The notes beneath the pieces are model-generated. The model made no database searches. It was not told where the DNA came from and worked only from the letters and a program-made list of their open reading frames with translations. Source: Fibrobacterota bacterium (GTDB lineage Bacteria; Fibrobacterota; Chitinivibrionia; Chitinivibrionales; Chitinispirillaceae). Taken from it: a stretch of DNA of 64,000 nucleotides. The position numbers and the translations under genes were made by a program. This document shows, piece after piece, positions 1 through 45,339 of this stretch; positions within the stretch are counted from its first letter, which is position 1, and each line of letters starts with the position of its first letter. The DNA lies in NCBI GenBank assembly GCA_023459055.1, contig JAEWVR010000019.1, positions 38,480 to 102,479 of the forward strand. Direction: 5' to 3'.

Positions 1-317
1 TTAAAATGATATCTACACTCTGTCTGCAGTGTTAATGGTGACTTAAGCAAGTTCATCCTGATTTAAATTCAGGGTACGACGTCTGATCTATGAGCATCAA
101 TCATAGCGATTCAAGTACCAGCACTGCCGAATTTTCAATAAAACCATGCAGTTATTTTTTTGACTGCAAGCCTCACAATTAATATACAATCCGCGCGTGA
201 ACAATGGAAGACAATGTTAAGGAATTGAAAAAAACACAGCGATTCCCGGTGATAATTACAGATTTAACAAGCATAGTGTAAAGCACTTACAACAAAATCA
301 CCTTAAAAATGCAGGAG

Positions 318-1238
318 TTATTCAGGCAACACCGGATTTAATGTATCTGAAAATGATTGCTCCATTTGGGATGAATCTATTTTCGGCACTGCTACCATTC
401 CTGAATCAGAGATAGTATCTGCTGTCAGCTTATCCGTCTCAACAACCGTATCAGCCATTGATCTGTCCGGCGCTTTTTTCTGTGGTGTTTCATGGAGTGC
501 AATCGCTGCTTTCATATCACCACCAAGGGCACGGGTGATTAGTCTTGATCGCCGTGAAACAAACCGGGAGTTCTTAAGCGGATTAAACAGAATTGGATTT
601 GGCAGAACCGCTGCAAGCCGCACAGCTTCACTCTTTGTTAACTCTGATGCACTATGTCCGTAATACGTTCTTGACGCCATTTCAATTCCGAAGATTCCAT
701 CCCCCCACTCTGCTATATTCAGATACAATTCAAGTATTCTGTTTTTTGACAACGTACGTTCGATCCGCCAGGTAAGAATCGCCTCATGAATCTTCCTGAC
801 AGGATTTTTTGATGGAGACAGAAACAGATTTTTTGCGAGTTGCATTGTTATGGTACTTGCACCGACAGCCATCTTCCGCTTTTCGATATTTGTTTCGAAT
901 GCTTTTCTCATTGCATCAAAATCGAATCCATCATGTTTCCAAAACTTTGCGTCCTCACCGACAATCACCGCTTTACGAATATGAGGGGAAATTCTGTTCA
1001 GTGGCACCCACACCTGCTTTATCTTTGTTGTCCGGCCCTTTGCTCTCCACTGCGCTTCCCGATATTTCATGAATGCTGTTTTTACCGGATTCTTGGCTGC
1101 ATATTTTTTGACATCAACGATAACGGAATAATAAGCAAGATCAAATGCAATAATTGCCAGAATCAGTATGAATAGTTTGATCCATAATGATACTTTCTTT
1201 TTTTTCTTCTTTTTTATCAAACGTTTAACCATAATCAA
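318..1238 (-). CDS. mtgA: Monofunctional peptidoglycan glycosyltransferase (GT51 transglycosylase domain) with N-terminal membrane anchor
   Basis: N-terminal hydrophobic helix. The GT51 signature 'GASTITMQLAKNLFLS' and 'RILELYLNIAEWG' is present. No transpeptidase domain follows. Confidence 0.8.
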   Translation of the reverse strand: MIMVKRLIKKKKKKKVSLWIKLFILILAIIAFDLAYYSVIVDVKKYAAKNPVKTAFMKYREAQWRAKGRTTKIKQVWVPLNRISPHIRKAVIVGEDAKFWKHDGFDFDAMRKAFETNIEKRKMAVGASTITMQLAKNLFLSPSKNPVRKIHEAILTWRIERTLSKNRILELYLNIAEWGDGIFGIEMASRTYYGHSASELTKSEAVRLAAVLPNPILFNPLKNSRFVSRRSRLITRALGGDMKAAIALHETPQKKAPDRSMADTVVETDKLTADTISDSGMVAVPKIDSSQMEQSFSDTLNPVLPE

Positions 1239-28145: not shown

Positions 28146-28337
28146 TCATTGTTCAGTATGTCGGTAATTCCGACATACTGCCTCTAAAGGTAAAGATTAC
28201 TCGGTTAATTACTGCAATCCTGTTGTTTTTATTTCAGTCTGTTAATATAGGTATCATTTGAATAGTTTGGAACATTTGTACATTGAGCATACTTTTATGT
28301 TGTCATCAAAAATACCAATCAAGAAAGTCTCCACATC

Positions 28338-29474
28338 ATGACAAAAGAAAAATTCGCAATATTCATTGACGCCGAAAATCTCATTAACTGGATCAAAAAC
28401 GATGGTCCGGAGAAGCTGCTTGAGGAGTTGAGTACGCAGGGGCAGGTTATTGTGCGTCGGGCGTATGGGAAATGGACAAATCAGAATCTGAGCCAGCTTC
28501 AGGAGAATCTGAATCGCAACGGATTTGAACTGCTGCATAATTTTCATCCTGTCAGTGGGAAAAATTCAAGCGATATTCAGATGACCGTTGACGCAATGGA
28601 GTATGCACTTAAACTATCTGATGTTAGCTGGTTTGTTCTGGCAACCGGCGACAGTGATTTTTCTCCGCTCTTTAGAAAGCTGCGGGAGATTGGCAAAGAG
28701 GTTATCGGGATTGGTCCCAAATCACCCTTAAGTGAATGCGTAAAAACATCATGCTCACGATATATCTACACATATGATGAAAATGCGGATGAAAAAGAGA
28801 TACTCGCATTTGAACGTGACGAAATTGAGGAGCTGCTGGAATCAATTGTAGTAACCCATGATGGGCCAATAAATATTTCACATCTAAAAAATCATATTCT
28901 TCAAATAGACAATGCATTCAATGAAAAACAAATGGGGTTTAAGAATTTCAGCAGTTTTATTGATTCCTTTGACTTTCTTAAGATTGAAAAAGATATGGTG
29001 AGTTACGTTCGTGTCTCTGATGCAAAAAACAGCTATAAAACACTACTCAAAAGAAAAAACTGGGACTTTCTTCCAAAAACAATAATTGACAAATTGTATA
29101 AAGAATGTATCACCATACCAGCGCTTCCCCGCCAGCAGCTTATTGATAAAGTGATTGCAAAAAATATCGAAGGAACCTCGTCCAGTATCGTCAGGAAGTT
29201 TTTACAGATAATTTACAAAGCAAGACTTATGCAGACTCAGCTGACAAACGGTGATGACAAAATCGTGAAAGTAATTTTAACTGACGAGTATCTTCAAAAA
29301 ATCGACCTCGCAATGCTCTCCCGGTTACTTTCTGCGATCAACGAAACAAGCAGCAAGATAGAAAAAGATGAACTGAAAAAACTATTATATGGTAACTATA
29401 CCGATAAGGAATTTGAGAAAATTATGCTGATTGCAAAAGAGAATATGATAAACAAGGATGACAATGATCATTGA
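28338..29474 (+). CDS. NYN-domain (LabA-like RNase) protein with two OST-HTH/LOTUS domains
   Basis: The N-terminus '[10 protein letters not shown]...[10 protein letters not shown]...[18 protein letters not shown]' is NYN-like. The downstream repeats '[31 protein letters not shown]' are OST-HTH-like. Confidence 0.65.
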
Positions 29475-29847
29475 GCAGTGTCCCTGCAGTGCAATAGTTT
29501 TTGGGTTGGTACGCAGTGTCAGCAGCCTGCAAAATGTCCGAACTGTGACGATAATACACTGCTCTCCTATCCAGCAAATAAATAGTAACCGGATTCTGAA
29601 ATCATCTTAGAACGTTCGCATATTCTTACAAGACAACTTTTGCAAAACATTTGGATCATTTTAAAACACTTGAATTAATCACATATAAAACAACATGTTA
29701 TGCACTCATTGACAGATAATGATCCTTCGCATAAACCATTACCTATTCCGCTATTAGTTCCGCCAAACGGTACACTGCTCTCCGATTTCATCCATAATTT
29801 CCTGAAACTATTGCAGAAGTCAGGATTTTAGGATATATTACATTATT

Positions 29848-30714
29848 ATGAAAAACAGCAAAATAGTGCTGAAAGACTATCTTGATTTCAGATCATATAT
29901 AAAAGATTATATTGAATACAAAAATGCACACGGCGAACAGCTTACCAATCGTTCGTTTGCTTCAGCCGTTGGTATTAGCTCATCCTCCTGGTTGACTACA
30001 ATTTTAAATGGAAAAAAAGGGATCACCGATAAAACAGTCGGTGCTATTTCAGATTTCTTTAAGCATAACGATTGGGATCGAGAGTACTTCAGGATCCTTG
30101 TCAATTTCAATCAGGCAAAGACAGTTGAAAGTCGAAACGTTTTTTTCACTCAACTGAAACAACTTCTTTTAAAAAGAGGTTATCTGGCCATACGGGTTCT
30201 TGATAACGATCAGTACGAATACTATTCCAAATGGTATTATAGTGCAGTCCGGTCAATTATTGGAATGATACCTGTTGGTGATGAATATGAACGGCTTGCA
30301 CGTTATGTTTCACCATCAATTACCGCAGCCCAGGCTAAAAAGTCAATCAAATTACTTTTAAAACTTGGGTTGATCGAGAAATTGGATGCAGGATATTATA
30401 GACTGACGAATAGTGCAATTTCAACTGGTTACAATGTAAAATCGCTTGCAGTCGCCAATTTTCAGAGAGAAACAATGAAACTTGGTATTGAGGCAATCGA
30501 TCGTTATGATTCATCAATACGTGATATATCATCTCTGAGTATTGGAATCTCCGAAGCCGGTTTTCAGAAGATTTCCGCTATGATCGCAGAATTCAGAAAA
30601 GCGATAGTAGAGGTTGCCAATACCGACAATGATGCCGACAGGGTGTATCAGGTCAATTTTCAGGTTTTTCCATTATCCAGGGTACTCAACCATGATGAGA
30701 ATGAGAAACTATGA
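29848..30714 (+). CDS. Putative HTH-type regulator resembling the Fibrobacter-type TIGR02147 paralogous family
   Basis: 'YLDFRSYIKDYIEYKNAHGEQLTNRSFASAVGISSSSWLTTILNGKKGIT' matches that family's N-terminal pattern as I recall it. This was not verified by search. Confidence 0.4.
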   Translation: MKNSKIVLKDYLDFRSYIKDYIEYKNAHGEQLTNRSFASAVGISSSSWLTTILNGKKGITDKTVGAISDFFKHNDWDREYFRILVNFNQAKTVESRNVFFTQLKQLLLKRGYLAIRVLDNDQYEYYSKWYYSAVRSIIGMIPVGDEYERLARYVSPSITAAQAKKSIKLLLKLGLIEKLDAGYYRLTNSAISTGYNVKSLAVANFQRETMKLGIEAIDRYDSSIRDISSLSIGISEAGFQKISAMIAEFRKAIVEVANTDNDADRVYQVNFQVFPLSRVLNHDENEKL

Positions 30715-31952
30715 CGAGTAAAAACATTAGTATTTGTAACGTACTACTCCTGATAGTTGGAGTGATTATCATGTGTACCTCCTGTACGTCTGATAATCTT
30801 GCCGGCGGAAATTCGTCCGAAACAACCAATACAAAGATCCTCGCGAGCACCAGTGATGTCGCCAAAGGTGCTAAACTATATCTTATTGATGCCGAAAACT
30901 GGACCTATTATGTTTCGAGAAATAAAAGCCCGATACTTGACAGTACCGTATCAGATAATGACGGCAATTTTAAATTTGACTCGCTTCCTTTGACAAATTG
31001 CAACCTCCAGATCGATCACGAATCAAGCGGGTTACTGCTCAGGAATTTCAGCCGGGATGGAAAAGAGACGAATCACAGTGATACCCTGCAGCTGCTTGAC
31101 TATGCAGCGATTAACGGATCGTGTCTTGTCCATTCTGACAGTGTCAACCTTGCTCTGCTTGAAGGTTCAGGCTATACATCATCCATTATCAGCAACAGGA
31201 AGTTTTCTCTTTCAAAAGTTGCACCTGGTACATATCCGCTTCTCTTTAAATCACCGGTCGGATTTATTGACATTATACGTGCCGACTCACTTCATCCGCG
31301 TCAGAGCAAATCACTTGATAACCTTGTTGTCAATTTCAAGGAGTATTTCATAGATGATTTCGAGGATGGAGATTCGATCAGTATTCCAGGCCTCATAACT
31401 GGTGCTCACTGGTACAGTTTTGTCGATGTCGAATCATCAATGAGTAAAACGATTGCTTATACTCCTGAGAATGATAATTACTATCTCAGTACCGATATTA
31501 TGCTACGCACTAATCAGATCGGATCATTTGCCGGTACCGGAGTATACCTTGACAAAAATCACGGGGAGTGGGATCTCTCGACAATCAAGTCAATCTCCTT
31601 TTTGGCAAAAGGATCCGGGACTTTCAGAATAAGCATGGAGTCAGCACACATTGATGATCTCTCGCCAGACTCAATATATTCCTGGCCTCATTTCGGTGCA
31701 CTCTTTACCGTTGATTCAACATGGAGATCATTTACAATTCCAGTCGATTCACTAACGATCATACCAAACACGCCACTTTCCGGTAGTGGAATTACCTGGG
31801 CTGAAGCAGTCAAAAGAATTGTTCGTATTGAATTTGAAGTGTCACCGATGTACAGTTCACTTGGCGAGCATAGTCTCATGATTGACAATGTAAAACTTGA
31901 TGGTATCTCGGATACCGAGTTTTTCAGACAGATCAAACTGAGTGGAAGGTAA
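30711..31952 (+). CDS. Lipoprotein, hypothetical (translationally coupled to the upstream regulator-like gene)
   Basis: The start overlaps the upstream stop (ATGA). A TM/signal segment is followed by Cys ('CTSCTS'). Composition is beta-rich. Confidence 0.5.
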   Translation: MTSKNISICNVLLLIVGVIIMCTSCTSDNLAGGNSSETTNTKILASTSDVAKGAKLYLIDAENWTYYVSRNKSPILDSTVSDNDGNFKFDSLPLTNCNLQIDHESSGLLLRNFSRDGKETNHSDTLQLLDYAAINGSCLVHSDSVNLALLEGSGYTSSIISNRKFSLSKVAPGTYPLLFKSPVGFIDIIRADSLHPRQSKSLDNLVVNFKEYFIDDFEDGDSISIPGLITGAHWYSFVDVESSMSKTIAYTPENDNYYLSTDIMLRTNQIGSFAGTGVYLDKNHGEWDLSTIKSISFLAKGSGTFRISMESAHIDDLSPDSIYSWPHFGALFTVDSTWRSFTIPVDSLTIIPNTPLSGSGITWAEAVKRIVRIEFEVSPMYSSLGEHSLMIDNVKLDGISDTEFFRQIKLSGR

Positions 31953-31966
31953 TGCAGGCGCTTCTA

Positions 31967-34900
31967 TCAATTGTGCGACTTACGTTTCTCCTGACGTTTA
32001 CGTTCCCGTTCCTCTTTTAAAAAACGGGCAATCAACTCTCTTTGAAACCACAGGCTTCTATTAATGGTCGTTTCCAACGCAGCAATCGTTCCACTTTTTT
32101 CTGCACCTTCAATTTCGATCATCTCCGATACTGGTGCATTTTTCAGTGAAGGCTGTGTGTGCAAATCTTTATTACTTTGTAAATATTTTAGCCATTCCTG
32201 CATAATATTCATCTGATTCTCAAGAACACTTAATACAGACTTCATTGTATCGGGGTTGACCGTATCACTCACACCGGTATCCGCATTGTTCAATGATGAT
32301 GCCACTTTATTCATTCCGGAAGTCAATGCAGCACTTAATTCGTTAGCGATTTTTACAATTGACGCTTCAGTAACCTGATTTTTATGTTCTTTTTCCTGAA
32401 TCACAATTTGTGGAGATAGATTCTTACCTTGTGCAATTGCATTGCTGATATCACTCAGGCCATCACCAACTTTACATAACTGTAATACCGCCTGCCCTAC
32501 CTTATCATCAGCTTTTGCAAACTTATTCTGATTAAAGGATCGTTTAATTTCCTCCCAACGTAACCGCTCAACTTCAGAAAGACACCCCAGAAGCTCTTTC
32601 CACTTAAGTAAATTGGCTTCTGCCCCCGTAGTCAATGTCTGGGCATCATTTTCGTAGGAGCGCAAGACGGTTCCGAATAATTCTTCATCATTCATAACAG
32701 GTACAATACGTTCTGCAATACGGTTCATATTTCTGTATGATCCCTGAAGCTTAAAAGCAGGTTCAGTCCTGTATTCATTTGCCTGTGCAGCGCTGCGTAT
32801 ATACTCCTGATTTACTTTTAAAACGATATCCCGTACGCGCAGTAATTTTCGTATTACCGAAACAAGATCACTCATGAGGTTGGCACTGTAATCACCACTC
32901 AGCTCAATTTTTTCCATTGAGTTGTTTTCGCATGCATTTACAAAAGCATAGAGATCACAAAGCGGTCGTTTTGTCATTTCACTTAAAACGGGATTTGATG
33001 TCAATGCATTTTCGATATAACTGAGTTTAAAGGCTTTTTCATTGGCGCTCAGCATGTCACCAAGATTATAGGTATCTGCACGGTTTGCAAGCATATCGGG
33101 TATTTTAAATCGTTCGCCGCTTTCGGTATACGGGTTACCGGCCATAACAACGGCAACTTTCTTGCCCCTGAAATCATAAGTACGACTTTTACCATTGTAA
33201 ACGCCCTCAATTTTACGCTGGGCATCACAAAGTGAAATGAATTTTTCCAGAAACTCCGGATTACAATGCTGAATATCGTCAACATAGATCATGACATTGT
33301 TTCCCATTTCAAGCGCAAGATTCAGTTTCTGCAGCTCCTCACGGGAACTTGCGTTTGGAGCCTCCGCCGGATCCAGTGATGTAACCTTATTACCAACTGC
33401 GGGACCGTTGATTTTCATAAATATCAATCCAACCCTGCTTGCAACATATTCCATCAATGTTGTTTTTCCATAGCCCGGTGGTGAGATCAGAAGCAACATT
33501 CCCGATAAGTCAGTACGTTTCTTTTCGCCAACAACGCCGATCTGCTTTGCGAGGTTATCACCAATAAGTGGCAGATACAACTCATTAATTAGCTTATTAC
33601 GCACAAAGGAGCTCATGATTTTCGGATTAAACTCATCAAGTTTCAGCCTTTGTTTATAGGAATCACGAACGGTTCTTTTTATGTCCCTGCATGCCTGGAA
33701 TTTGACAACCACATTTTTCTCGTAAACATCCAGTTCATGCACAAACATTGCGTATGTCAACTTTAATTCTCCATTGACAATTTTAGGATGATCACCCCGA
33801 AGCCCCTTAATTGTCCGTGATGTCGGTGTTTCAATGATTTCACCCGGTAGTCGTACTTGTAAACCGGTAATTAATTCAAGTGCGATTAGCACTGCTGCTT
33901 CTTCAATAAAAGGTTTCAACTCAGGAACATTTAATTCACTGAAGCAGGCCCGGATCCAGCTATGCACCATTTCAAACTGCGCTGCAGGATCTCCATTAAG
34001 CAGATTAACCGATTCTATAAATTTCTGATAAACAGTTTTTTCTTTCAGACAGGCAGTCACTTTCCGGCATAGTGTATCAGCTTCAATGCTGATTACAAAT
34101 TTATTACCTCTACCCCGTTCATCACACAAATACCTGACAGCATCGGAAGCAAGCGAATCATCACAAAAGCAGACAGTTTTACAGAAATCCGCAACCATGC
34201 GTTGCAATTCCTTAATACAAGAGTGATCATACATTCCTTTATTAAAAGTAGTCTGCGCAATATGCATGCCTTTTAATTGCTTGTCAATCCTCTCCTTGAT
34301 CTCCTGATCCTGCGGCCATAGCCAGAATAATCGCGCGAGTGCCCGTGCTGATGGCATATAGGTTAGAAGATCTATTGACAAACTTAATTCCGCACAGTTT
34401 TTTATGATCAGCGCGGCATCGAAATCATGTACACCCTTCACATACCCTTCATCATAACGGCTGGTCATGAATTTAGAGACTTTTACAACAAGTTCATCGA
34501 CCTGACTTGCTGCAATTGAATCCATTGGATCAAACGATCCATCCTTTGATGCCTTAATAATCTGAAAGGCAAGATATTCCGCTCTGTAAACATTACTATT
34601 TTCAGAAATCAGTTCCTGTGCCCAGACATTCTTTGTGGAATCAAGCTCTTCAGAAACGATTGGTTCGTAAAAATCGGTTCCTGTAAGATGGAAATACATT
34701 TGCTCATTTTTGTAGATGATGGCAAGATCAAGTGGCTGGGTATTTACAGAAAAATTATGACGCCCGAGCTTTATAATATCTTTTCCATCAACATATAATT
34801 CCAATGAATCAAGAAGTTTACGTGATGCATCTTCATGAAGCGTTTTAAGGCGGCTCTGGATATCATCTGCTTTTACCGAATCACCAAGCGTATCAAGCTT

Positions 34901-37369
34901 CTCAATCAGCTCCCGCACTTTGTCAACCATCATATCTGATGCAAGATAGGTATTGATATCATTCTGAGTTGTAAATGAACGCAGACGGGTTTCAATTCCC
35001 TGCAAAATGCGCTCGGCAGCGCTCATAAGTGATGTACATGTGCGGTTACGCTGTTCCTGAAGCATTACCCTTTTAGACTCAAACGCCTGATTAACTTCAA
35101 TTCTCTTCTGAGCAAGTACCGGTACAAATTCATCAAAGTCGGCGAATCTGCTATCAAGTTCTTCAAACAGTACCATAATTTTTGATAAAAATTCATCGCA
35201 CTTTGAAGCATCATCGGTAATATCAAGATAATTTGCAATTGACTGATCAAGCAGTTTAATCTGTGCGTTAAATTCTGCCGTCCCCTCACCACTACGCAGG
35301 TTTTTCACGTGCATCCTCAGACGGCTTCTTATCCTGTTAAGTTCTCCGAATATCAATGCAATTTTTTCTGTGATTTGTGTAGCATTGACAGGATCATCAA
35401 TTTTAAGATTACCGACAATCTCGACCAGAAGCTCAAGATCTTTACCCGTTTTATCAATTTCAGCCTCAACCCTGCGTCCATCAGATGTTTTCGTAACCGA
35501 AGCGACATCATTATCGTGCTTTACAACAGCATCATGATATGCCCGAAGCCCATCAGGGGTAAGTAGAAACGCGATACAGGCGCTGCTGATCTTTTCGAAT
35601 GCATCCTTTGCACTTTTCTCCAGAATACTGATTGCCTCAAGATCAGCATATTTCATCTCTTTTAGAGATGTAATATCGCCACGAAGTGAACGGATATCAG
35701 CCAGCGCCGTTACAAATCTATCAATACGTTTCGGCTCAAGATTACCTGTTGACAGCAGAAGTTCATCTGAGCGCTGCGTTACTTTGGAAAGTGCATCACG
35801 TGTCTGCTTTTTTACTGCATTCACTTTCTCAAACTCTTCAACCGCTGATGCAGCAATGGTTCTTATGGCGATAAGTGTATTCTTTAAACCAAAACCTTCC
35901 GGTTTATCAATCCAGAAATGAGAATCGAGTATGCGATTCGCTTCCCGTGAAATATCGATGTATAAGTTGGCATATGAATCCTCTTTTAGCAGCAGACTTA
36001 AAACAGTCTGACATTCAGACATGCAACGAACGATTTCCTTATTTCCAACTTTGTAGAGAAGGGAATCGGTATTGACTGCAGGTGGTATATAACCGGTACC
36101 AAAAAACGGTGTCTGCCATATTTGTAATACATGACTGTTTCGAGGTTCTTTTTCTGCTTTAAACAGAACCTGTTCTCCATTGTCAAAGTAGGTAAAGCCA
36201 TGGCAGATAACCGGAGTGTCTACTTTCTGTTCAATTCGATTGTAAGGTAATATGACACAAATACCATCAACAGCATTATAGAAAACATATTGAAAATCTT
36301 CACCATTAGGTGCGGCTATTTTTTTCTCGAAGCGTAAATTTTCAATTGTCGAATCAAATATTTTAAATACACCAGTCTGAAGGTAATACCCATTTGGAAA
36401 AATGATACCGCTGTTATCAGGAAGTAATATGCAGGCATCCTCAATGGTGTCGATTCGTACAACTTTCTGAGTTTTTTCGTTGTAAAGAAGATATCTGAAA
36501 TTCTTCTCCTGAAAAGGGCGAACTTTAAGAAGAATTAAATTTCCGACAATTGCATAAAATATTTCAGCGTCATCAAGTGTCTGATCTTTATTCTCCACTG
36601 ATTCACAATAGATACCTCTTCCGGTGCTCGTATTATCTTCAACCTTTATTGTAAGATCACCACCGATTGTTTCAACAAACAAGCGGTCATCTATAGAAAT
36701 GTGTGGATGCTCACCCGGACGGAAATTTTCTCTTCTTGTCCGTTTCCATTCAAATTCATGCTGCGGAGGCGATACCAGCTCCTGTTCACTGCGATTGTTG
36801 ATATATATGAGTTTACCTTTTTCAAAACCCCATTTGAATGTCTTTATATCAGAGACATTATTACCGGTTCTGAAAACCATATACAGAAAAGGACCATTAA
36901 CAACGAGTTTAGTCAGAAACGTGTTTCTATAGTATTTATAGAGTTCCTGAAAATCACGGATAAAATTGTCATTTTTTAAAATATCAATCGATACTTCATT
37001 AAAATGATGATTTTCATATTCATAAACAGAAAAAACATCTTCAATAGCCGTTGTCGATTTAAGACCGAATTGTACATTATAACCAAAGATAAAACGGTTT
37101 CCAAATGATGCCAGATCCCGCGGAATGCAGCTGTTTTCGGTAGTAATCCGTTCACTGCATATGAGAGCTGTATTCACAGCTCCAAAGACATCTTTACGTG
37201 CTTTATTAACTTTATCAAGTGTGTCACGAAGCTGTTTGGCACATTGATCAAGACGCTGCCTGATCACTACATAGGTGCCACTATCAATCTGGTTTTGTTC
37301 AATATCATTTGAAGTATTCTGAACGGGTTCCTTATCCTGTGGATTATCTGTCTTTTCCATATATGTCAA
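31967..37369 (-). CDS. Giant (1800 aa) soluble protein with a single MoxR/dynein-type AAA+ ATPase module in its C-terminal third; function unknown
   Basis: Walker A 'ISPPGYGKTTLMEY'. Walker B 'VMIYVDDIQHCNP'. Sensor region 'VVMAGNPYTESGERFKIPDMLANRADTYNLG' follows the MoxR 'NP...xLxxAxxDRF' pattern. No TM or signal peptide. Long predicted helical and coiled regions. Confidence 0.7.
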   Translation of the reverse strand: MTYMEKTDNPQDKEPVQNTSNDIEQNQIDSGTYVVIRQRLDQCAKQLRDTLDKVNKARKDVFGAVNTALICSERITTENSCIPRDLASFGNRFIFGYNVQFGLKSTTAIEDVFSVYEYENHHFNEVSIDILKNDNFIRDFQELYKYYRNTFLTKLVVNGPFLYMVFRTGNNVSDIKTFKWGFEKGKLIYINNRSEQELVSPPQHEFEWKRTRRENFRPGEHPHISIDDRLFVETIGGDLTIKVEDNTSTGRGIYCESVENKDQTLDDAEIFYAIVGNLILLKVRPFQEKNFRYLLYNEKTQKVVRIDTIEDACILLPDNSGIIFPNGYYLQTGVFKIFDSTIENLRFEKKIAAPNGEDFQYVFYNAVDGICVILPYNRIEQKVDTPVICHGFTYFDNGEQVLFKAEKEPRNSHVLQIWQTPFFGTGYIPPAVNTDSLLYKVGNKEIVRCMSECQTVLSLLLKEDSYANLYIDISREANRILDSHFWIDKPEGFGLKNTLIAIRTIAASAVEEFEKVNAVKKQTRDALSKVTQRSDELLLSTGNLEPKRIDRFVTALADIRSLRGDITSLKEMKYADLEAISILEKSAKDAFEKISSACIAFLLTPDGLRAYHDAVVKHDNDVASVTKTSDGRRVEAEIDKTGKDLELLVEIVGNLKIDDPVNATQITEKIALIFGELNRIRSRLRMHVKNLRSGEGTAEFNAQIKLLDQSIANYLDITDDASKCDEFLSKIMVLFEELDSRFADFDEFVPVLAQKRIEVNQAFESKRVMLQEQRNRTCTSLMSAAERILQGIETRLRSFTTQNDINTYLASDMMVDKVRELIEKLDTLGDSVKADDIQSRLKTLHEDASRKLLDSLELYVDGKDIIKLGRHNFSVNTQPLDLAIIYKNEQMYFHLTGTDFYEPIVSEELDSTKNVWAQELISENSNVYRAEYLAFQIIKASKDGSFDPMDSIAASQVDELVVKVSKFMTSRYDEGYVKGVHDFDAALIIKNCAELSLSIDLLTYMPSARALARLFWLWPQDQEIKERIDKQLKGMHIAQTTFNKGMYDHSCIKELQRMVADFCKTVCFCDDSLASDAVRYLCDERGRGNKFVISIEADTLCRKVTACLKEKTVYQKFIESVNLLNGDPAAQFEMVHSWIRACFSELNVPELKPFIEEAAVLIALELITGLQVRLPGEIIETPTSRTIKGLRGDHPKIVNGELKLTYAMFVHELDVYEKNVVVKFQACRDIKRTVRDSYKQRLKLDEFNPKIMSSFVRNKLINELYLPLIGDNLAKQIGVVGEKKRTDLSGMLLLISPPGYGKTTLMEYVASRVGLIFMKINGPAVGNKVTSLDPAEAPNASSREELQKLNLALEMGNNVMIYVDDIQHCNPEFLEKFISLCDAQRKIEGVYNGKSRTYDFRGKKVAVVMAGNPYTESGERFKIPDMLANRADTYNLGDMLSANEKAFKLSYIENALTSNPVLSEMTKRPLCDLYAFVNACENNSMEKIELSGDYSANLMSDLVSVIRKLLRVRDIVLKVNQEYIRSAAQANEYRTEPAFKLQGSYRNMNRIAERIVPVMNDEELFGTVLRSYENDAQTLTTGAEANLLKWKELLGCLSEVERLRWEEIKRSFNQNKFAKADDKVGQAVLQLCKVGDGLSDISNAIAQGKNLSPQIVIQEKEHKNQVTEASIVKIANELSAALTSGMNKVASSLNNADTGVSDTVNPDTMKSVLSVLENQMNIMQEWLKYLQSNKDLHTQPSLKNAPVSEMIEIEGAEKSGTIAALETTINRSLWFQRELIARFLKEERERKRQEKRKSHN

Positions 37370-37587
37370 TTTCCTGAGGAATGTACAATGCAGTCTTGAA
37401 AAATGTGATTAACAGCCCTGCCGTGATAGTGTTATTGTGTCATTAACAAGGAAGGATTAGTGCCAATTGAGTACCCCTACCTCAGCTAAAAGCAGCGGGA
37501 CCTCCCCAGACAATGTCGTTAACTTAGTGTTTAAAAGGTGGCAGTGTACTTAGACGCTCGCCCCCACCCGCTCGCAAAGCCGAGCGA

Positions 37588-37648
37588 CCTCCCCCGCAGG
37601 AGGGAGATATAATTGTTTAAAAACCAAAGAATACCTCCCTCCTGCAGG
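37588..37648. promoter_or_regulatory. Perfect 11-12 bp GC-rich inverted repeat (GCAGGAGGGAG ... CTCCCTCCTGC) in the 333-bp gap between the flotillin and giant AAA+ genes
   Basis: Read directly. The loop is about 28 nt and no U-tract follows on the transcribed (minus) strand. It belongs to the CCCTCC palindrome family. Confidence 0.4.
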
Positions 37649-37701
37649 AAAGATCTGGTTGCTTTGAGCCAGGGTTAGTGCGTTCAGTCGTCACAGTGGC
37701 A

Positions 37702-39963
37702 TTACATATTGATTATCGACTCAGCCGGTTTACTGCCAATACCAAGTTTTTCAACAGTACTCAGTATCCCCTGAAGCATCCCCTTTTCATCACCTTTTGA
37801 CAAGGACAAGAGCTTCATGATAAGTGCACTGACCGTTAGGTTTTTAAGATCTCCGGAACTCAGATTGAATTTAGCAACAAACTCTTTTATCTGATGTTTA
37901 AAATAATCACCGTCACCATTGACAAACGTTTTCTTTACATCGGTGAGGACCGCACTGTTATTAACCAGTTTATCAACTGATTTACCTTGAACAATTGAAC
38001 CGATGACCTTGTCGAAGAACATGGTTTCACCACCAACAATATCAATCTTGGCACTCTTGAGCGCTTCCTGAATAACAGCAGCCTGTGCATCAGCGATTTT
38101 TGCCTGTGTCTCAATGGATGCAATCTCAATGGTTTTATCTTTGTCAAGTTTTAGTTTGAACTCTTCGTGATCTCTTCCCGGACCGTCAAAGTTTTTCATC
38201 GCATCGGATTTTTCCTTTATGCCGAGAGCTTCTGCGGAATACCTTTTTGACAATACTGATGCCTCGGCTGTTCCCTTCTTTTCGATGGTGGTCGCCATTG
38301 CTTCACCACCTTTAGCCTCTGCCAGTGCTTTTGCCTCAATACCCTTTGCTTCAGCAAGACCTTTCAGTTCAAGTACGTGAGCTTCTGCGGTACCTTGTTT
38401 TTCCAATGCAACAGCTTTAGCCTCAAGGCCTTTGCTTTCGGCAACAATCTTAAGTTCAATACCTTTTGCCTCTGCTGCAGCTTTTACCTCGATACCCTTA
38501 GCTTCTGTTGTATAGTTCATCTCCTGAACCTTTACTTTTGCACCACCTTCAAGTTCAATTGCTTTGGCACGTGCTTCCATGACCCTTACTTCTGCCATTC
38601 CGTTAATCGCCTCTTCAGATGCACGTACGTCAGCAATGATCTTACGCGCTTCAGCATCCTTCTCTGATGCACGAAGTTTTGCGTCGGCTTCGAGGATCTG
38701 CTGTTCACATATCTGCTGAGCTGCCTTTTTACTTGTCTCTGCCGCAACAAGTTCTTTCACCTGGCTGGCAAGCGCTGCTTCTTCCGCTTGTGTCAACGTC
38801 ACCTTTTTCTGACGATCCGCAGCGGCAAAAGCTTCCGTATCTTTAATCCGCTGCTGTTCTGCAACAGTTTCCTTTTCTACGGCAACACGTTCACGTATAA
38901 CGCTTTGAATATTTTTACGTTCTTCTTCAACCGCACGCTCTTTTGCAATTTCGGCCAGTGTGACGATCTTTTCTTTTTCTGTTTTTTCAATGAGTCTGTC
39001 TTTGTCAACCCGCTCAGCTTCAACCAGTTCAACACGTTCACGTGCTTTCTGTGCAACAATAATCTGACGATTCTTGTTTTCTTCAGCAATTGCAATTTCC
39101 TCTTCCGTCGTGATACGTGCACGCTCAGCTTTCAGCCGTTCCTCGCTTGCGATTTTTTGTGCTTCAGCCTGTTCTCTTGACTTGATTGCAGCTATTTCAC
39201 GTATCTGCTTCTCCTGAGCTTCTGTCTGCTGACGCTGCAATTCAAGGATTGCCTCTTTAGCCTGAACATCCTGCTGTTCAATAGTCTTTTCCTTATCACG
39301 CTGGATCTGGTTTGCCTTTATCATTTCGCGAGCTGTTATTTCTGTAATCTTCTTAAATCCTTCAACATCGAGGATATTATCTTTACTCAAATGTTCAATC
39401 GATGTCTGTTCGAGATAGTCAATTGCGGCATCGTCAAGAACATATCCATTAAGATCTGTTCCGATTACCTGCAAAATCTCCTCTTTAAATTTATTTCTCT
39501 CGGTATAGAGTTGTACAAAATCAAACTTCTTTCCTACAGTCTTAAGAGCTTCAGAGAATTTTGCATCAAAGAAAGCCTCCATTGTTTTATGATCTGATGC
39601 TTTTTCACACCCGAGTGACTGTGCTACTTTAAGGACATCCTCGGCACGATGATTTACACGAACAAAGAATGCGACTTTGATATCTGCGCGAATATTATCC
39701 TGGCACAGAAGACCATCAGGTCCGCGGCGATCAGTTTCGATACGTTTCACAGAAATATCCATAATTTCACATTTATGAATTATCGGTACAACCCAGATTC
39801 CACCAAAAGAGACCTTCTGCCCCCCGATTCCATTTCTGACAAGTGCTTTTCCCTGATCGACCTTTTTATAAAATTTTGATAATGCGGTAAGAAATGCAAT
39901 CAAAAAGAAAACTACAACACCTACAATAATTAGTGCTAACATTGGAATTTGCTCAAAATTCAT
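37702..39963 (-). CDS. SPFH/band-7 flotillin-like protein (YqiK/FloT-like) with extended EA-repeat coiled-coil
   Basis: N-terminal TM helix. SPFH core 'GGQKVSFGGIWVVPIIHKCEIMDISVKRIETDR...IRADIKVAFFVRV'. Long E/A/K-rich heptads with tandem 'EAKGIE(V/A)KA' units. Flotillin-like C-terminus. Confidence 0.8.
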   Translation of the reverse strand: MNFEQIPMLALIIVGVVVFFLIAFLTALSKFYKKVDQGKALVRNGIGGQKVSFGGIWVVPIIHKCEIMDISVKRIETDRRGPDGLLCQDNIRADIKVAFFVRVNHRAEDVLKVAQSLGCEKASDHKTMEAFFDAKFSEALKTVGKKFDFVQLYTERNKFKEEILQVIGTDLNGYVLDDAAIDYLEQTSIEHLSKDNILDVEGFKKITEITAREMIKANQIQRDKEKTIEQQDVQAKEAILELQRQQTEAQEKQIREIAAIKSREQAEAQKIASEERLKAERARITTEEEIAIAEENKNRQIIVAQKARERVELVEAERVDKDRLIEKTEKEKIVTLAEIAKERAVEEERKNIQSVIRERVAVEKETVAEQQRIKDTEAFAAADRQKKVTLTQAEEAALASQVKELVAAETSKKAAQQICEQQILEADAKLRASEKDAEARKIIADVRASEEAINGMAEVRVMEARAKAIELEGGAKVKVQEMNYTTEAKGIEVKAAAEAKGIELKIVAESKGLEAKAVALEKQGTAEAHVLELKGLAEAKGIEAKALAEAKGGEAMATTIEKKGTAEASVLSKRYSAEALGIKEKSDAMKNFDGPGRDHEEFKLKLDKDKTIEIASIETQAKIADAQAAVIQEALKSAKIDIVGGETMFFDKVIGSIVQGKSVDKLVNNSAVLTDVKKTFVNGDGDYFKHQIKEFVAKFNLSSGDLKNLTVSALIMKLLSLSKGDEKGMLQGILSTVEKLGIGSKPAESIINM

Positions 39964-40667
39964 CTGCTACCTCCTTTTGAATCCTCAACGTGAAGTATAT
40001 CTTTTGTTAGTTTTATTTCGTAAAGATCTTTTTCCTTGTCATAATGCACAACAAATGCATCATCCCCTTTATGGATAATTGTGCCATCAACACTTTTTAC
40101 ATTAATACGAATAGGTGCACCATCACGTTCAATCTCAGCCTGACCGATCCTGCCAGGTTGAACATCAGTTATCAAGGTGCATACTTTGTTGACAATCTGA
40201 ACAGGTTGAGCGATCCCTTTCAGTTCACGAAAGAATTTCCTGAATGGTGATGTAATCGCTTTTGTAATAAATGCGGCCAATAAAATTGCGGGTAATTGAA
40301 TCACTCCACTTAACAAAACAGTGAGATCAAAGCTAAGTTGAAGCCCAACGGCTATCGCCCACCAGAAAAGCGTGATAAAACTGAACAGAAGCATCACGGG
40401 AACATCGCGAAGGTTTAAAAAAACCAGAATTCCCTGCCCAATACCTTCAGCATCCACATCAGTGTCAAGATCAGCATCAAAATCAAAATGTGCGTCAAGA
40501 ATATTATGCTCTATCCCACCAATAACAACCGTTAACCAGTAAAGCAGCGCAAGAACCAGAAGTATTGATGGTACAACATTAAAACCAAAAATAGATGCGG
40601 TAAAAATTTCTAACAAAATGTAATCCTGATGATAGCGTTTACAATCATAAGCAGCACATATGATCAC
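39960..40667 (-). CDS. NfeD-like membrane protein (short form: TM helices + C-terminal OB-fold)
   Basis: Multiple N-terminal TM helices. The C-terminus 'VCTLITDVQPGRIGQAEIERDGAPIRINVKSVDGTIIHKGDDAFVV' follows the NfeD OB-fold pattern. It overlaps the flotillin start by 4 bp, the classic NfeD-SPFH operon arrangement. Confidence 0.7.
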   Translation of the reverse strand: MIICAAYDCKRYHQDYILLEIFTASIFGFNVVPSILLVLALLYWLTVVIGGIEHNILDAHFDFDADLDTDVDAEGIGQGILVFLNLRDVPVMLLFSFITLFWWAIAVGLQLSFDLTVLLSGVIQLPAILLAAFITKAITSPFRKFFRELKGIAQPVQIVNKVCTLITDVQPGRIGQAEIERDGAPIRINVKSVDGTIIHKGDDAFVVHYDKEKDLYEIKLTKDILHVEDSKGGSR

Positions 40668-42321: not shown

Positions 42322-43198
42322 TCAACAGATGAATATCCACTGATGGAGCACTGTGTGTTATGGAGCCACAGGAAATAAAATCAACCCCGGTTTCAGCAAC
42401 AGATGCAATTGATGCCAGTGTTATATTACCACTTGCCTCAAGCTCAATCTTTTTTCCTGATGCACGTATGATAGCAACACATTTGCGCATATCATCAAGA
42501 CTCATATTATCAAGCATTATACGATCGGGTGAATGCACCATTGCTTCTTCAAGTTCGCTGACCGACTGAACCTCTGCCTCGATCTTGAGAGAGTGATCGC
42601 TTCCACGAAACTCAATTGCTTTAGCAAGTGCGTTTCCAACTCCGCCAGCCCGTTTCACATGCGTATCCTTGATTAGTATCATATCAAATAATCCGATACG
42701 ATGATTACAGCCTCCACCATGCACCACAGCAAGCTTTTCAGGAAGGCGTAACATTGGCGTTGTTTTTCTTGTGTCAAGAAGTCGTGCATTTGTATGCGAT
42801 ATAGCTGCAACGTATTTAGAAGTCATTGTTGCAACACCACTCAGACGCTGCAGGAAATTGAGCGCAAGACGTTCACCGGCAAGAATCGTTTTTACTTTAC
42901 CTTTCAGCGTACAGAGAATTGTTCCATGCTGCATTTTTGCGCCATCCTGTACTTTTAGTTCGACCTGTATCGAGCTATCCAGTCTTGTAAACAATGGTTT
43001 AAGCAGGTATACGCCGCTGCAAACACCCTCACATTTACTTCTGATAACAGCATCTGCCATGTCGGAATCCTTAAAAATTGACTCTGTAGTAATGTCACCA
43101 CGATCGCCAAGATCCTCTTTCAGTGCAGCATCAATTAATTGTCCAATTACTTTTTCATCAATGTTCATAAAAAACCCCATACGATTCCACAATACCAT
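42314..43198 (-). CDS. nadC: Nicotinate-nucleotide pyrophosphorylase (quinolinate phosphoribosyltransferase)
   Basis: 'LDTRKTTPMLRLPEKLAVVHGGGCNHRIGLFDMILIKDTH' is strongly NadC-like. Confidence 0.9.
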   Translation of the reverse strand: MVLWNRMGFFMNIDEKVIGQLIDAALKEDLGDRGDITTESIFKDSDMADAVIRSKCEGVCSGVYLLKPLFTRLDSSIQVELKVQDGAKMQHGTILCTLKGKVKTILAGERLALNFLQRLSGVATMTSKYVAAISHTNARLLDTRKTTPMLRLPEKLAVVHGGGCNHRIGLFDMILIKDTHVKRAGGVGNALAKAIEFRGSDHSLKIEAEVQSVSELEEAMVHSPDRIMLDNMSLDDMRKCVAIIRASGKKIELEASGNITLASIASVAETGVDFISCGSITHSAPSVDIHLLIV

Positions 43199-45339
43199 TC
43201 AATAATGTGATCATTTTTATTAATTGCCCTGGTTTGTTTTAATGCATTTTCCATATAGAAATACCTAAATGAACTTTCGAGTGCGATGTTATAAAACAGA
43301 GGATTTGTCTGAAGATCAATTCCGGCCTCTGTCTGCCATGAAACTGCAGGTTTTCCACCAATTGGAAAATACGTACCGTTACGCTGTGTTACATATCCGC
43401 CTGCATATTTTATATACCGTACTAAAGAGTCATTGATACCAATACTTACCTTTATCGAATAGTTAAGCGGAAATGAAGTCTCAATAGAATCAACTACATC
43501 GTTAAATGTATTTCTTTCCACAAAGTTTTGAATATATAATACCGACAGATCAATTCCCTTTACAGGATTAAATCCATACTTTGCCGTCATGCCAATAGCA
43601 CGACGATCTTTTGAGAACATTGAATTTACTGTTTCGATTGTATAATTATGTGTTGTAGTATCATCATTGATAAAATTCCTGTGCATCATGTAAAATTCAT
43701 TGAAAACGCCATTTGATAACCGGCCATTTTCGAGAAATAAACTGAGCCACAGATGTGATTTGTAAAAATCAATGTACAATGATGGCAGCCGCAGAATCCG
43801 TCCATCACTATGTCTTTCATGAACCTTCTGGGCGAACTCTCCAAAGATACGTGCATGAAACTCATAGTTTAACGCAAGATCCAACCCAGCCAGCAGCTCG
43901 ACAATATGTACCTCTTTTTTTTCATGCGCCGGTTTGATAGTATCCCTGAATGCCGGAATACTATACTTATAGTTATCATCATTGACAATTTTGTAGTATT
44001 GATCAAGATCGAAATAATACCCGAGACCAAGATAATAGCTTGATGGTTCATATCCCAGATAGAAACCACCTACATATGGATTAAGTACATCAGCCAGATA
44101 ACCCTTTATTGATACATCATTATTGAACTGTGCATGAGCATTCACTCCAGCCGTATGATAGATAGTGCCACTATGTGAATTTCTGAAATTGTCAACAACA
44201 AGACCGTTTCCATATGTCAGGTCCTTAATACCACCGAGGTTGATAAACAGACTGTCAGCGGAATAGCCAAGTGTAAAATGGTCTATTTTATCAAGCAAGC
44301 CTTCAGCACTTGAAAAGTTCATAGTAACATGATCCAGCTGTTCCCTGTATAAACCAAAGCGTAGTCCGAAATCGATAAATTTATAATTCATTGCACCGGT
44401 CAACATGTAAGCGCTATATGTCTGATCATTACCAGTCCCCTGTAATGTGCCCAATGTAAACCGTACCTTTTTTCTTGTGACATTATTTACTGTGGAGTAA
44501 TGTTTATAAAATCCGTATTTATTCACCTGATCATCAATAATACTACCATAGATCTTTTCAACATCAAAGAGAACCTTATACATGTCATCATTTGCCGGTG
44601 ATTGTACGCGGGCAGACAGATTTTTTGATATTGTCAATCTGTTACCCGCTTTTTCCTCTGTAGGTTTAACTCCCGCCTGATCCAACTGAAGCTGAATGTA
44701 TTCATCGCCAAAAAAATGTTTCAGGACGGTGACATGCCTGTTTGTCAGATATAACGCGGCACTTGGTTCCTTATTGGGTAATACCACTGTGGTAAGACCG
44801 GAACGCAGAATCTTTCCTTTACTTTGTGTGATATTTCGAACGTTAACAATACCGTTTATTACCTGAAAACCCGATTCTCCAGTCTTGCCATCAGCAACTG
44901 TTGACAATGTCGCACTATCAGTTTCAGCAACAGCATTGGTAGTAAAGACTCTAAGTTTACAGCCGCGACTTGATATTGTCAAAGCCCCACCGGAAAATAC
45001 CGTCACACTGATTTCAGTATTAATCGAATCCCCTAAACCACGGCTTTTGTAGTCAATCAATGTTTTCGTGTTTGATCCCAGGACAACAATGGTCCCATTT
45101 AATGATAGTTGTAGTTTTGTCTGAAAGTCGGTTTCAAATATGTCACCTGGCTTCACGTGGTCACCGGCAGCAACCTTGTTCCACTGATATTGCTCTGAAT
45201 GTTGCACACTTGCAGAGCCATCAAGTTGCGTAACTGTGAAATTGAGTGCCTGTTGAGAAAAAACCGTTGTTAGCAGTAATAGTTGAATAAAAACTGATTT
45301 CAAGAGAGTCTTTTTTGAAATGATCAGCGCACACATCAT
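43165..45339 (-). CDS. Secreted protein with FecR-like domain and beta-rich C-terminal region (hypothetical)
   Basis: Signal peptide. 'VKPGDIFETDFQTKLQLSLNGTIVVLGSNTKT' is FecR-like. Confidence 0.45.
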   Translation of the reverse strand: MMCALIISKKTLLKSVFIQLLLLTTVFSQQALNFTVTQLDGSASVQHSEQYQWNKVAAGDHVKPGDIFETDFQTKLQLSLNGTIVVLGSNTKTLIDYKSRGLGDSINTEISVTVFSGGALTISSRGCKLRVFTTNAVAETDSATLSTVADGKTGESGFQVINGIVNVRNITQSKGKILRSGLTTVVLPNKEPSAALYLTNRHVTVLKHFFGDEYIQLQLDQAGVKPTEEKAGNRLTISKNLSARVQSPANDDMYKVLFDVEKIYGSIIDDQVNKYGFYKHYSTVNNVTRKKVRFTLGTLQGTGNDQTYSAYMLTGAMNYKFIDFGLRFGLYREQLDHVTMNFSSAEGLLDKIDHFTLGYSADSLFINLGGIKDLTYGNGLVVDNFRNSHSGTIYHTAGVNAHAQFNNDVSIKGYLADVLNPYVGGFYLGYEPSSYYLGLGYYFDLDQYYKIVNDDNYKYSIPAFRDTIKPAHEKKEVHIVELLAGLDLALNYEFHARIFGEFAQKVHERHSDGRILRLPSLYIDFYKSHLWLSLFLENGRLSNGVFNEFYMMHRNFINDDTTTHNYTIETVNSMFSKDRRAIGMTAKYGFNPVKGIDLSVLYIQNFVERNTFNDVVDSIETSFPLNYSIKVSIGINDSLVRYIKYAGGYVTQRNGTYFPIGGKPAVSWQTEAGIDLQTNPLFYNIALESSFRYFYMENALKQTRAINKNDHIIEWYCGIVWGFL

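Follow-up and report, generated by a model that had tools for sequence, protein, structure and literature searches.

Three co-directional genes were found on the minus strand of the window, i.e., the whole 64-kb stretch of DNA analyzed. They encode, in order of transcription, a YqiJ/NfeD-type membrane protein, a long YqiK-type flotillin and a very large AAA+ ATPase (Table 1). All of the ORFs reported in the initial annotation were recovered at the same coordinates, as was the 4-bp overlap of the NfeD-like and flotillin genes (39960–39963). In its longest form, the ATPase ORF (31967–37369) starts from TTG and encodes 1800 aa; however, translation probably begins at the ATG at 37360, since this codon agrees with P0001 and the start region is kept in a 90%-identical relative, so that the annotated length holds for the ORF and the likely product has 1797 aa. 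Similarly, the longest form of the NfeD-like ORF (39960–40667, 235 aa) begins from GTG, and TTG at 40616, giving 218 aa, is its likely start. More than 4,798 homologues of the large protein were present in the database, many with E = 0, which indicates that these are real genes and not chance ORFs.

The flanks are housekeeping genes, as previously described. Upstream, Pan_kinase (coaX) and QRPTase (nadC) were identified together with a birA-like gene, whose match to BPL_LplA_LipB was weak, and downstream lies a convergent gene for a 413-aa protein with a lipoprotein-like N-terminus.

The flotillin and ATPase genes are separated by a spacer that contains a hairpin with a 25-bp stem (arms at ~37593–37610 and ~37631–37648, both unique to the spacer within the window). 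The spacer is predicted to fold at -116 kcal/mol (z = -4.3). Directly before the ATG at 37360, ~45 nt are conserved and include a putative ribosome-binding site (AGGAAA), and a ~100-bp block with the hairpin is missing from the 90%-identical relative (L085). Given the 341-bp gap and the strong hairpin, the two genes are not tightly coupled, and their co-transcription is not assured here.

Table 1. Features of the flotillin/ATPase locus, listed in the direction of transcription.
Feature	Nucleotides	Residues	Strand	Basis
YqiJ/NfeD-type membrane protein, ~3 TM and soluble C-terminal ~85 aa	39960–40616		-	YqiJ_N, profile, hydropathy
Long YqiK-type flotillin, 753 aa	37702–39963		-	Band_7, YqiK homology, TM and composition
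Flotillin, N-terminal TM		~8–30	-	Hydropathy
Flotillin, SPFH/Band_7	39265–39864	34–233	-	Pfam
Flotillin, E/A/K-rich coiled coil	38254–39264	234–570	-	Composition
Flotillin, conserved C-terminal domain	37705–38253	571–753	-	Conservation; no alignment to YqiK
Flotillin–ATPase intergenic spacer, 341 bp	37361–37701		-	Hairpin and conserved 3′ end
ATPase, DUF3686, beta-propeller-like, after N-terminal helix	35915–37231	47–485	-	Pfam, AlphaFold, Foldseek
ATPase, long helices/coiled coil, small beta unit (~865–903), helical bundles	33866–36040	~444–1168	-	Pfam, DSSP
ATPase, DUF7902	35306–35551	607–688	-	Pfam PF25472, E 4e-21
ATPase, single AAA+ module, MoxR/midasin/dynein-clade-like	32510–33502	~1290–1620	-	Motifs
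ATPase, C-terminal helical tail and stop codon	31967–32509	~1621–1800	-	Model, alignment

Domain organization of the encoded proteins

The NfeD-like protein has about three hydrophobic segments and matched Pfam YqiJ_N slightly above the cut-off (23.6 bits against 23). A profile of 28 syntenic homologues was aligned by hhalign to residues 4–200 of the 209 in E. coli YqiJ (probability 96.9%, E 2e-10). The C-terminal ~60 residues align to the YqiJ C-terminus in this comparison and gave no match to the Pfam NfeD or YqiJ OB models.

When the whole flotillin was scanned against Pfam, no match was returned, Band_7 included. We suspect that the repetitive E/A-rich coiled coil suppresses the full-length Band_7 match, as the N-terminus scanned alone gave a clear one (E 1.6e-12; 48.2 bits, cut-off 23.6). 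The only hydrophobic segment of the protein is N-terminal. The flotillin shares 28% identity with E. coli YqiK over residues 13–445 (E 8e-41), and its profile aligned to YqiK with a probability of 100%, covering residues 25–431 only. The C-terminal block, in which some residues are invariant among the 31 ATPase-linked flotillins compared, gave no match to the Pfam Flot C-terminal region (PF15975) either within the full protein or as residues 576–753 alone. This domain may be confined to flotillins linked to the ATPase. As it is kept in these flotillins and does not align to YqiK, it is a possible docking site for the ATPase.

The AAA+ domain had been regarded as the only recognizable catalytic module of the large protein; the remainder is not devoid of domains, as the protein also matches DUF3686 (PF12458, E 1e-180) and DUF7902 in Pfam. 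These two domains define its family, which carries the NCBI label "DNA repair ATPase"; homologues share its Pfam set and length range (~1,600–2,000 aa) and have one AAA+ domain. The AlphaFold model is beta-rich across residues 65–416, and the top Foldseek PDB matches of this region were WD40 and other beta-propellers, among them DCAF1 (E 5e-5), CyRPA and the GH43 and prolyl-oligopeptidase propellers. The propeller is followed by ~700 aa of helices, up to ~58 residues long and mostly with pLDDT of 65–85, which stand N-terminal to the AAA+ module. The tail was modeled as long low-confidence helices; its length and sequence vary between lineages, and alignment columns are poorly conserved past residue ~1640. 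Overall, confidence in the structure models was moderate (pLDDT 67–71), and pTM was 0.34 for the N-terminal one. When the latter was aligned by Foldseek to dynein heavy chains and IFT-A, TM was low, and these alignments were judged to be artefacts of helical length. An NCBIfam search yielded P-loop noise only. Hydropathy analysis found no hydrophobic segment in the ATPase, which is accordingly predicted to be soluble.

Of the AAA+ motifs in the initial annotation, Walker B (VMIYVDDIQH; D1364 and D1365, DD rather than DE) and the sensor were confirmed, and Walker A reads SPPGYGKT (K1302) in place of GPPGYGKT. Sensor-1 N1412 is followed by AGNPYTESGERFKIPDMLANRADTY, R1430 and a helical lid, with an "NP...(I/L)P...L.NR" motif past sensor-1. 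No variation in Walker A, Walker B, sensor-1 or the candidate arginine finger was seen in the homologue alignment, which makes it likely that the protein is an active ATPase. The usual position of pore loop 1 (residues 1321–1337) is also invariant and has no aromatic residue, which counts against simple substrate threading. Between strand 2 and helix 2 there is an invariant 18-residue insert (1322–1339), modeled as a loop and a short helix and not as a hairpin.

The clade of the module was assigned by structure. PDB searches with the single sequence and with a profile matched only ~40 residues around Walker A and thus were of no use for this purpose. Structure comparison of the model gave CbbQ and NorQ as the closest structures, and a beta-hairpin was modeled before the sensor-1 strand (~1386–1399). 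This hairpin and the motif past sensor-1 are shared with the CbbQ/NorQ and midasin/dynein modules, which were the best structural matches. Based on the model, the module is placed as MoxR-like, within the pre-sensor-1 hairpin clade. The Pfam AAA_5 model matched above its cut-off, and AAA_3, the model for MoxR proper, gave no match. The ATPase differs from CbbQ/NorQ in being about six times larger, with a propeller and long helices N-terminal to the module, and from MoxR-family chaperones in lacking a VWA partner and an AAA_3 match and in having DD in Walker B.

Gene neighborhood and relation to described operons

Synteny was counted at 61 genome loci from eight phyla, found by an alignment-based scan and having at least 3.5 kb of upstream DNA. 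The flotillin gene lies directly upstream of the ATPase gene and is co-directional with it at 58 of them, and an NfeD gene is present in at least 45 of these loci. The same was true without exception for the flotillin of the five most divergent family members looked up (28–33% identity, propeller domain). Hence, homologues of the large protein are syntenic with flotillin genes in other genomes, and the suggestion that the three genes form a discrete module is borne out. At five loci (L041, L042, L045, L048 and L063), ORF clustering took long antisense ORFs over the flotillin, which was present in all five according to tblastn; where it was called by clustering, the flotillin–ATPase gap was no longer than 160 bp in 33 of 53 loci. 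Three loci (L020, L021 and L052) had an ATPase gene with no flotillin nearby.

Among all neighbors at 80 loci, the only recurrent clusters were flotillin, NfeD, PspA, CesT/Tir and HTH-S24; an adjacent gene for a VWA-domain partner was neither recurrent there nor present in the gene list of the window. PspA was found upstream in 19 loci, all titled Bacteroidota, with CesT_Tir_1 in 17 of them, and a divergent HTH/S24 regulator is usual at such loci. In one distant lineage (L086), a convergent PspA gene abuts the ATPase gene, and in another (L089), TelA is directly downstream of it.

An operon of this kind has already been reported. Using comparative genomics, Ravi et al. (mSystems 2024, PMC11237479) described YqiJ/YuaF, Band-7/flotillin and beta-propeller/coiled-coil/AAA+ genes with or without a CesT/Tir-PspA dyad, exemplified by Dokdonia donghaensis (ANH61663.1), as a partner of the PSP (phage-shock) membrane-stress system and inferred sub-membrane chaperone or remodeling roles; more widely distributed PspA-less "abbreviated operons" were also noted. 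Comparison with their text and Table S3 showed that the window operon agrees with this description, having the three core proteins in identical order. It differs from the full form, which is reproduced at the Bacteroidota loci of the present survey, in having neither a CesT/Tir-PspA dyad nor a divergent HTH-protease regulator. Since PspA and CesT/Tir gave no significant tblastn match in the 64-kb window, the locus represents the "abbreviated" form, without PspA, of a membrane operon that is widely conserved in bacteria. In the genome studied here, PspA, if present at all, lies outside the window. The initial annotation proposed the system as a candidate undescribed one and took a giant AAA+ partner to be foreign to the known NfeD/SPFH operons; neither stands in light of this earlier description and of the existing Pfam families and NCBI name of the large protein. 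Literature searches for DUF3686, PF12458 and flotillin with MoxR returned nothing relevant, and no experimental work on the flotillin/AAA+ operon was found.

The first two genes are homologous to E. coli yqiJ-yqiK and B. subtilis yuaF-floT and have the same order. However, in E. coli MG1655, yqiK is followed by the annotated sibD/ibsD and sibE/ibsE and by no ATPase gene, and the window flotillin is 200 aa longer than YqiK, with the conserved C-terminal domain described above.

Thus, the discovery of the operon is not new. What is added here is the quantification of its synteny, including the most divergent members, the assignment of the ATPase clade by structure and the identification of a C-terminal domain possibly restricted to flotillins linked to the ATPase.

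Possible function of the module

Based on the above results, we suggest, with somewhat better than even confidence, that the module serves in envelope stress or in the quality control of membrane proteins, with the ATPase acting as a remodeler of the flotillin assembly or of its clients. The flotillin would oligomerize with the NfeD protein to build an SPFH assembly at the cytoplasmic side of the membrane, and the ATPase would oligomerize via its AAA+ ring. For docking, it may use the propeller and the coiled-coil arms, with the additional C-terminal domain of the flotillin as a possible site. Using ATP, it could then open the flotillin assembly, take it apart or reset it, or else free or pull out membrane proteins kept in that assembly, and the module may work alongside PspA. 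In S. aureus, unfolded membrane proteins are held by FloA-NfeD independently of ATP (PMC11222466), which leaves room for an ATP-dependent partner; this recent work describes flotillins as ATP-independent holdases. FtsH was the sole ATPase partner mentioned in a 2009 paper on SPFH evolution and a 2026 paper on Pseudomonas SPFH proteins. Both HflK/C-FtsH and ESCRT-III-Vps4 couple a scaffold of the SPFH or ESCRT-III/PspA type to an AAA+ ATPase, genetically and functionally; they serve as analogies only. The earlier idea of an SPFH-scaffolded, ATP-driven remodeling machine is still a reasonable hypothesis. Counted against the proposal were the gap with its hairpin, the flotillin-less loci (3/61), the lack of PspA in the window, the pore loop 1 position without an aromatic residue, the Walker B DD and the moderate confidence of the models.

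A more specific version is tentative: the large protein may be a dedicated ATP-driven remodeler of flotillin cages, with a hexameric MoxR-like ring whose six propeller/coiled-coil arms grip the flotillin C-terminal domain. In opening or recycling the cage, it would be a bacterial equivalent of what Vps4 is to ESCRT-III. If true, a flotillin would for the first time be known to have an energy-coupled step, and the repeated recruitment of a PspA gene beside the module would be explained. The mechanism of bacterial flotillins is still debated, and a very large, slowly evolving ATPase tied to one flotillin subfamily in at least eight phyla offers a handle on it. The linkage predicts an energy-dependent step, for instance opening of the cage, release of clients or joint action with PspA, and this step is open to genetics, cryo-ET and biochemistry in culturable Bacteroidota.

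Alternatively, the ATPase might be a MoxR-type maturation chaperone for one membrane client, acting in cofactor insertion or complex remodeling, with the flotillin and the NfeD protein as a platform and not as the substrate. The closest structures, CbbQ and NorQ, are both dedicated maturation/activation chaperones, and client binding by the propeller and the coiled-coil arms is conceivable. Nevertheless, neither a recurrent client gene nor a VWA adaptor gene was found among the conserved neighbors, and canonical MoxR proteins are much smaller (~300 aa) and paired with VWA proteins, so we regard this explanation as rather unlikely.

The initial annotation also raised a membrane-associated defense or stress system. 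Some defense systems contain large ATPases and SPFH proteins, and a type I restriction HsdR-like gene and an NYN/OST-HTH gene lie 2.5–8 kb away in the window, which would fit an anti-phage or abortive-infection system built of a membrane scaffold and a large NTPase. However, PADLOC gave no significant match (best E 0.011, over the P-loop only; none for the flotillin or NfeD), in agreement with the earlier statement that no catalogued defense system is matched, and the PHROGs search returned P-loop noise only. Moreover, ATPases from different phyla are ~50% identical along their 1,800 aa, the family collapses to only 689 clusters at 50% identity, and the neighbors elsewhere are unrelated housekeeping genes with no recurrent defense gene. 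This points to a slowly evolving cellular machine and not to a defense-island gene, and a defensive role is highly improbable.

Finally, a role in DNA repair is suggested by the names under which databases list the protein ("ATPase involved in DNA repair", "DNA repair ATPase") and by sub-threshold P-loop matches to RuvB_N (19.7 bits, cut-off 27) and to RuvB and clamp-loader sequences. It can hardly be right, as these matches stay below curated cut-offs and span only ~40–60 residues around Walker A, neither a DNA-binding nor a nuclease domain was identified, a literature search on DUF3686 or PF12458 found nothing, and the gene is fixed beside membrane-protein genes at 63 of 66 loci (58/61 and 5/5). 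Thousands of genes probably carry a misleading name in "DNA repair ATPase".

Conservation and genomic context of the module

Scanning one genome for each species by alignment yielded 570 confirmed loci for the large ATPase, 80 of which were kept. As labelled in the records, they belong to Bacteroidota, Planctomycetota, Verrucomicrobiota, Clostridia, Desulfobacterota, Kiritimatiellota, Lentisphaerota and Fibrobacterota, and the nearest genome match was a Chitinispirillaceae MAG (59% identity). Among the 61 informative loci, defined by at least 3.5 kb of DNA 5′ of the ATPase gene, a same-strand flotillin homologue was located upstream of this gene in 58 (53 from ORF clustering and five via tblastn, where the ORF caller chose antisense ORFs); the exceptions were L020, L021 and L052. 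At least 45 of these loci have the NfeD gene 5′ of flotillin; of the 53 clustered loci, 33 have a flotillin–ATPase gap of 160 bp or less. For five of the most divergent DUF3686 members (28–33% identity), NfeD and flotillin homologues were directly upstream in every case, with profile E-values of 1e-10 to 1e-25 and 1e-98 to 1e-186, respectively. Taken together, 63 of the 66 informative loci therefore keep the module, and its proposed discreteness agrees with the synteny, since SPFH/NfeD genes do accompany the ATPase homologues.

The flotillin and ATPase genes of many Bacteroidota, and of some Verrucomicrobiota, are separated by one to four unrelated small genes (L010, L019, L022, L029, L030, L031, L036, L038, L043, L046, L051 and L057). 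By eye, one of these in L030 was DUF559-type endonuclease-like and one in L038 GxxExxY-type-like, while L051 carried paired small membrane proteins. This junction seems to be tolerant of insertions.

A PspA/IM30 gene (E 4e-42) precedes the module in 19 loci, all labelled as Bacteroidota; 17 of them also contain a CesT_Tir_1 gene (E 7e-56), and the usual further companion is an HTH+S24-like regulator in divergent orientation. The PspA gene of L086 and the TelA gene of L089, loci from two distant lineages, show that the module gained helical membrane-stress proteins on separate occasions. No PspA gene was found across the 64-kb window.

The initial annotation regarded the system as undescribed. 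This was wrong: the operon was described by Ravi et al. (mSystems 2024, preprint 2020; PMC11237479), and the large protein matches existing Pfam families. The text of that paper groups CesT/Tir-PspA with three proteins, one of them a YqiJ/YuaF three-TM protein, and the gene order listed for Dokdonia donghaensis in its Table S3 is the same as in our Bacteroidota loci (PMC11237479). The window module is a further member of this operon type, to all appearance in a Fibrobacterota-like genome, as the nearest genome match and the DUF4423 gene close by suggest. A literature search for DUF3686 or PF12458 found no paper naming either, and the SPFH literature examined did not mention this ATPase; the system is therefore known solely as a comparative-genomics prediction.

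Genes and proteins of the module

The three minus-strand ORFs were found where the initial annotation had placed them, with the features claimed for their translations and the 4-bp overlap of the NfeD-like and flotillin genes, while the starts of the large and NfeD genes and the spacer between the flotillin and large genes had to be amended. The product of the revised large gene equals the database protein P0001, and about 45 nt preceding its ATG are kept in a 90%-identical relative. The spacer (fold z = -4.3) holds a strong hairpin. A block of about 100 bp bearing it is missing in the same 90%-identical relative, and the hairpin arm has no second copy anywhere in the 64-kb window. The block could have been inserted in this lineage and serve to attenuate transcription or to stabilise the RNA.

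Features of the module and neighbouring genes (window positions unless another locus is named)
Feature	Position	Strand	Remarks
NfeD-like gene	39960-40667	-	longest ORF; start most likely TTG at 40616
Flotillin gene	37702-39963	-	753 aa
Flotillin/large-gene spacer	37361-37701		341 bp
Hairpin	37593-37648		25-bp stem, inside spacer
Large ATPase gene	31967-37369	-	longest ORF, 1800 aa; start most likely ATG at 37360, 1797 aa
Walker B pair D1364-D1365	33275-33280	-	in large ATPase gene
724-aa ORF	43165-45339	-	upstream of nadC; no Pfam match
413-aa convergent gene	30711-31952	+	lipoprotein-like N-terminus; weak CarboxypepD_reg match only
HsdR-like type I restriction subunit, 1304 aa	within 24231-30714		extra DUF559 and MTES_1575 domains
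NYN + OST-HTH protein	within 24231-30714
DUF4423 protein	within 24231-30714
PspA gene, locus L086	12902-13648		convergent on ATPase gene, ends overlapping
TelA gene, locus L089	13001-14221		downstream of ATPase gene, co-directional

The smallest protein is hydrophobic, with about three hydrophobic segments and a soluble C-terminus. Its Pfam YqiJ_N score is marginally over the cut-off, and a profile of 28 syntenic homologues aligned across nearly the whole of E. coli YqiJ (probability 96.9%, E 2e-10). Judged by sequence, it is a YqiJ/NfeD-type protein.

The 753-aa protein is a flotillin. It has an N-terminal anchor and a central part rich in E/A/K (E+A = 38% in residues 234–570), and shares 28% identity with E. 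coli YqiK over residues 13–445 (E 8e-41); the profile alignment with YqiK ends at about residue 431. The full-length protein gave no matches in a Pfam scan, and the N-terminus scanned alone matched Band_7 (E 1.6e-12); the E/A-rich coiled coil is the probable cause of this missed match. Naive ORF calling also goes wrong over this coiled coil, preferring long antisense ORFs to the true gene in some genomes (L041, L042, L045, L048 and L063). Residues 571–753 form a block rich in invariant positions among 31 ATPase-linked flotillins, and Pfam gives them no assignment.

Based on Pfam annotation, the large protein belongs to PF12458 (DUF3686, "ATPase involved in DNA repair", E 1e-180), with further matches to PF25472 (DUF7902) and AAA_5/AAA. 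The database search gave more than 4,798 homologues, covering several phyla where the source names the organism; most of the matches listed share 47–53% identity across >90% of the length. Full-length DUF3686 members have about 1,550–2,040 aa and form just 689 clusters at 50% identity among 1.84 billion representatives; the family is compact, slow-evolving and essentially of a single architecture. The Pfam DUF3686 entry lists eukaryotes too. P0096 (EukProt g33011.t1, 1711 aa), from a eukaryotic protein collection, has about 50% identity to the window ATPase and could reflect contamination or horizontal transfer.

A search for hydrophobic segments in the large protein found none. Alignments of segments of the window protein and its homologues were the input for two AlphaFold models. 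The N-terminal model (pLDDT 67, pTM 0.34) comprises an N-terminal helix, a beta-rich domain (~65–416), very long helices (441–853), a small beta unit and helical bundles to ~1165. Foldseek paired the beta-rich part with beta-propellers, WD40 among them (DCAF1, E 5e-5), in agreement with the literature label "Betapropeller+Coiled-coil+AAA-ATPase" (Ravi et al., PMC11237479). The MoxR-like character proposed for the ATPase was supported. The 1800-aa translation contains a single P-loop, SPPGYGKT, together with VMIYVDDIQH and AGNPYTESGERFKIPDMLANRADTY. The enzyme is probably active, because 18 sequences, drawn from several phyla and one entry of a eukaryote database, show no substitution at Walker A K1302, Walker B D1364/D1365, N1412 or R1430. 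The acidic pair of Walker B is always DD, not DE, and is followed by invariant I-Q-H; it may indicate slow hydrolysis or another catalytic residue. The invariant loop at the usual position of pore loop 1 is without an aromatic residue.

Proposed function and alternatives

What is shown is the make-up of the module, that it is conserved and that it is repeatedly linked to PspA; beyond this, we suggest the following mechanism. An SPFH assembly made of flotillin and NfeD would form on the cytoplasmic side of the membrane, and the soluble ATPase would oligomerise via its MoxR-like ring. It could dock via its propeller and coiled-coil arms, perhaps onto the extra C-terminal domain of flotillin, and ATP would then be spent on remodelling the SPFH assembly or releasing membrane proteins held there. 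For S. aureus, the FloA–NfeD pair has been reported to hold unfolded proteins in an ATP-independent manner (PMC11222466); a reset or release driven by ATP would be a complement to this activity. We lean slightly towards this general reading, remodelling or release by a docked ATPase; its specific version, in which the ATPase is a "flotillin-cage remodeller", appears rather unlikely. The module represents a large, ancient and testable system.

It is also plausible that the ATPase is a client-specific MoxR chaperone which matures one defined client, with flotillin merely a platform. The structural neighbours of the ATPase fit this role; however, no recurrent client or VWA gene occurs among the neighbouring genes. 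A defence function, raised in the initial annotation, is opposed by a conservation pattern unlike that of defence genes and by the unrelated housekeeping genes neighbouring the module in other genomes. Neither PADLOC nor PHROGs gave a match, and the module is indeed in no catalogued defence system by the PADLOC search. As for a DNA repair ATPase, the NCBI label "DNA repair ATPase" on many homologues and P-loop matches below threshold, to RuvB and to clamp loaders, point that way, but nothing beyond these names and matches does.

Past the convergent gene downstream of the module, the group of three genes at 24231-30714 may form a small islet, either defensive or mobile; other genomes do not keep it beside the module.
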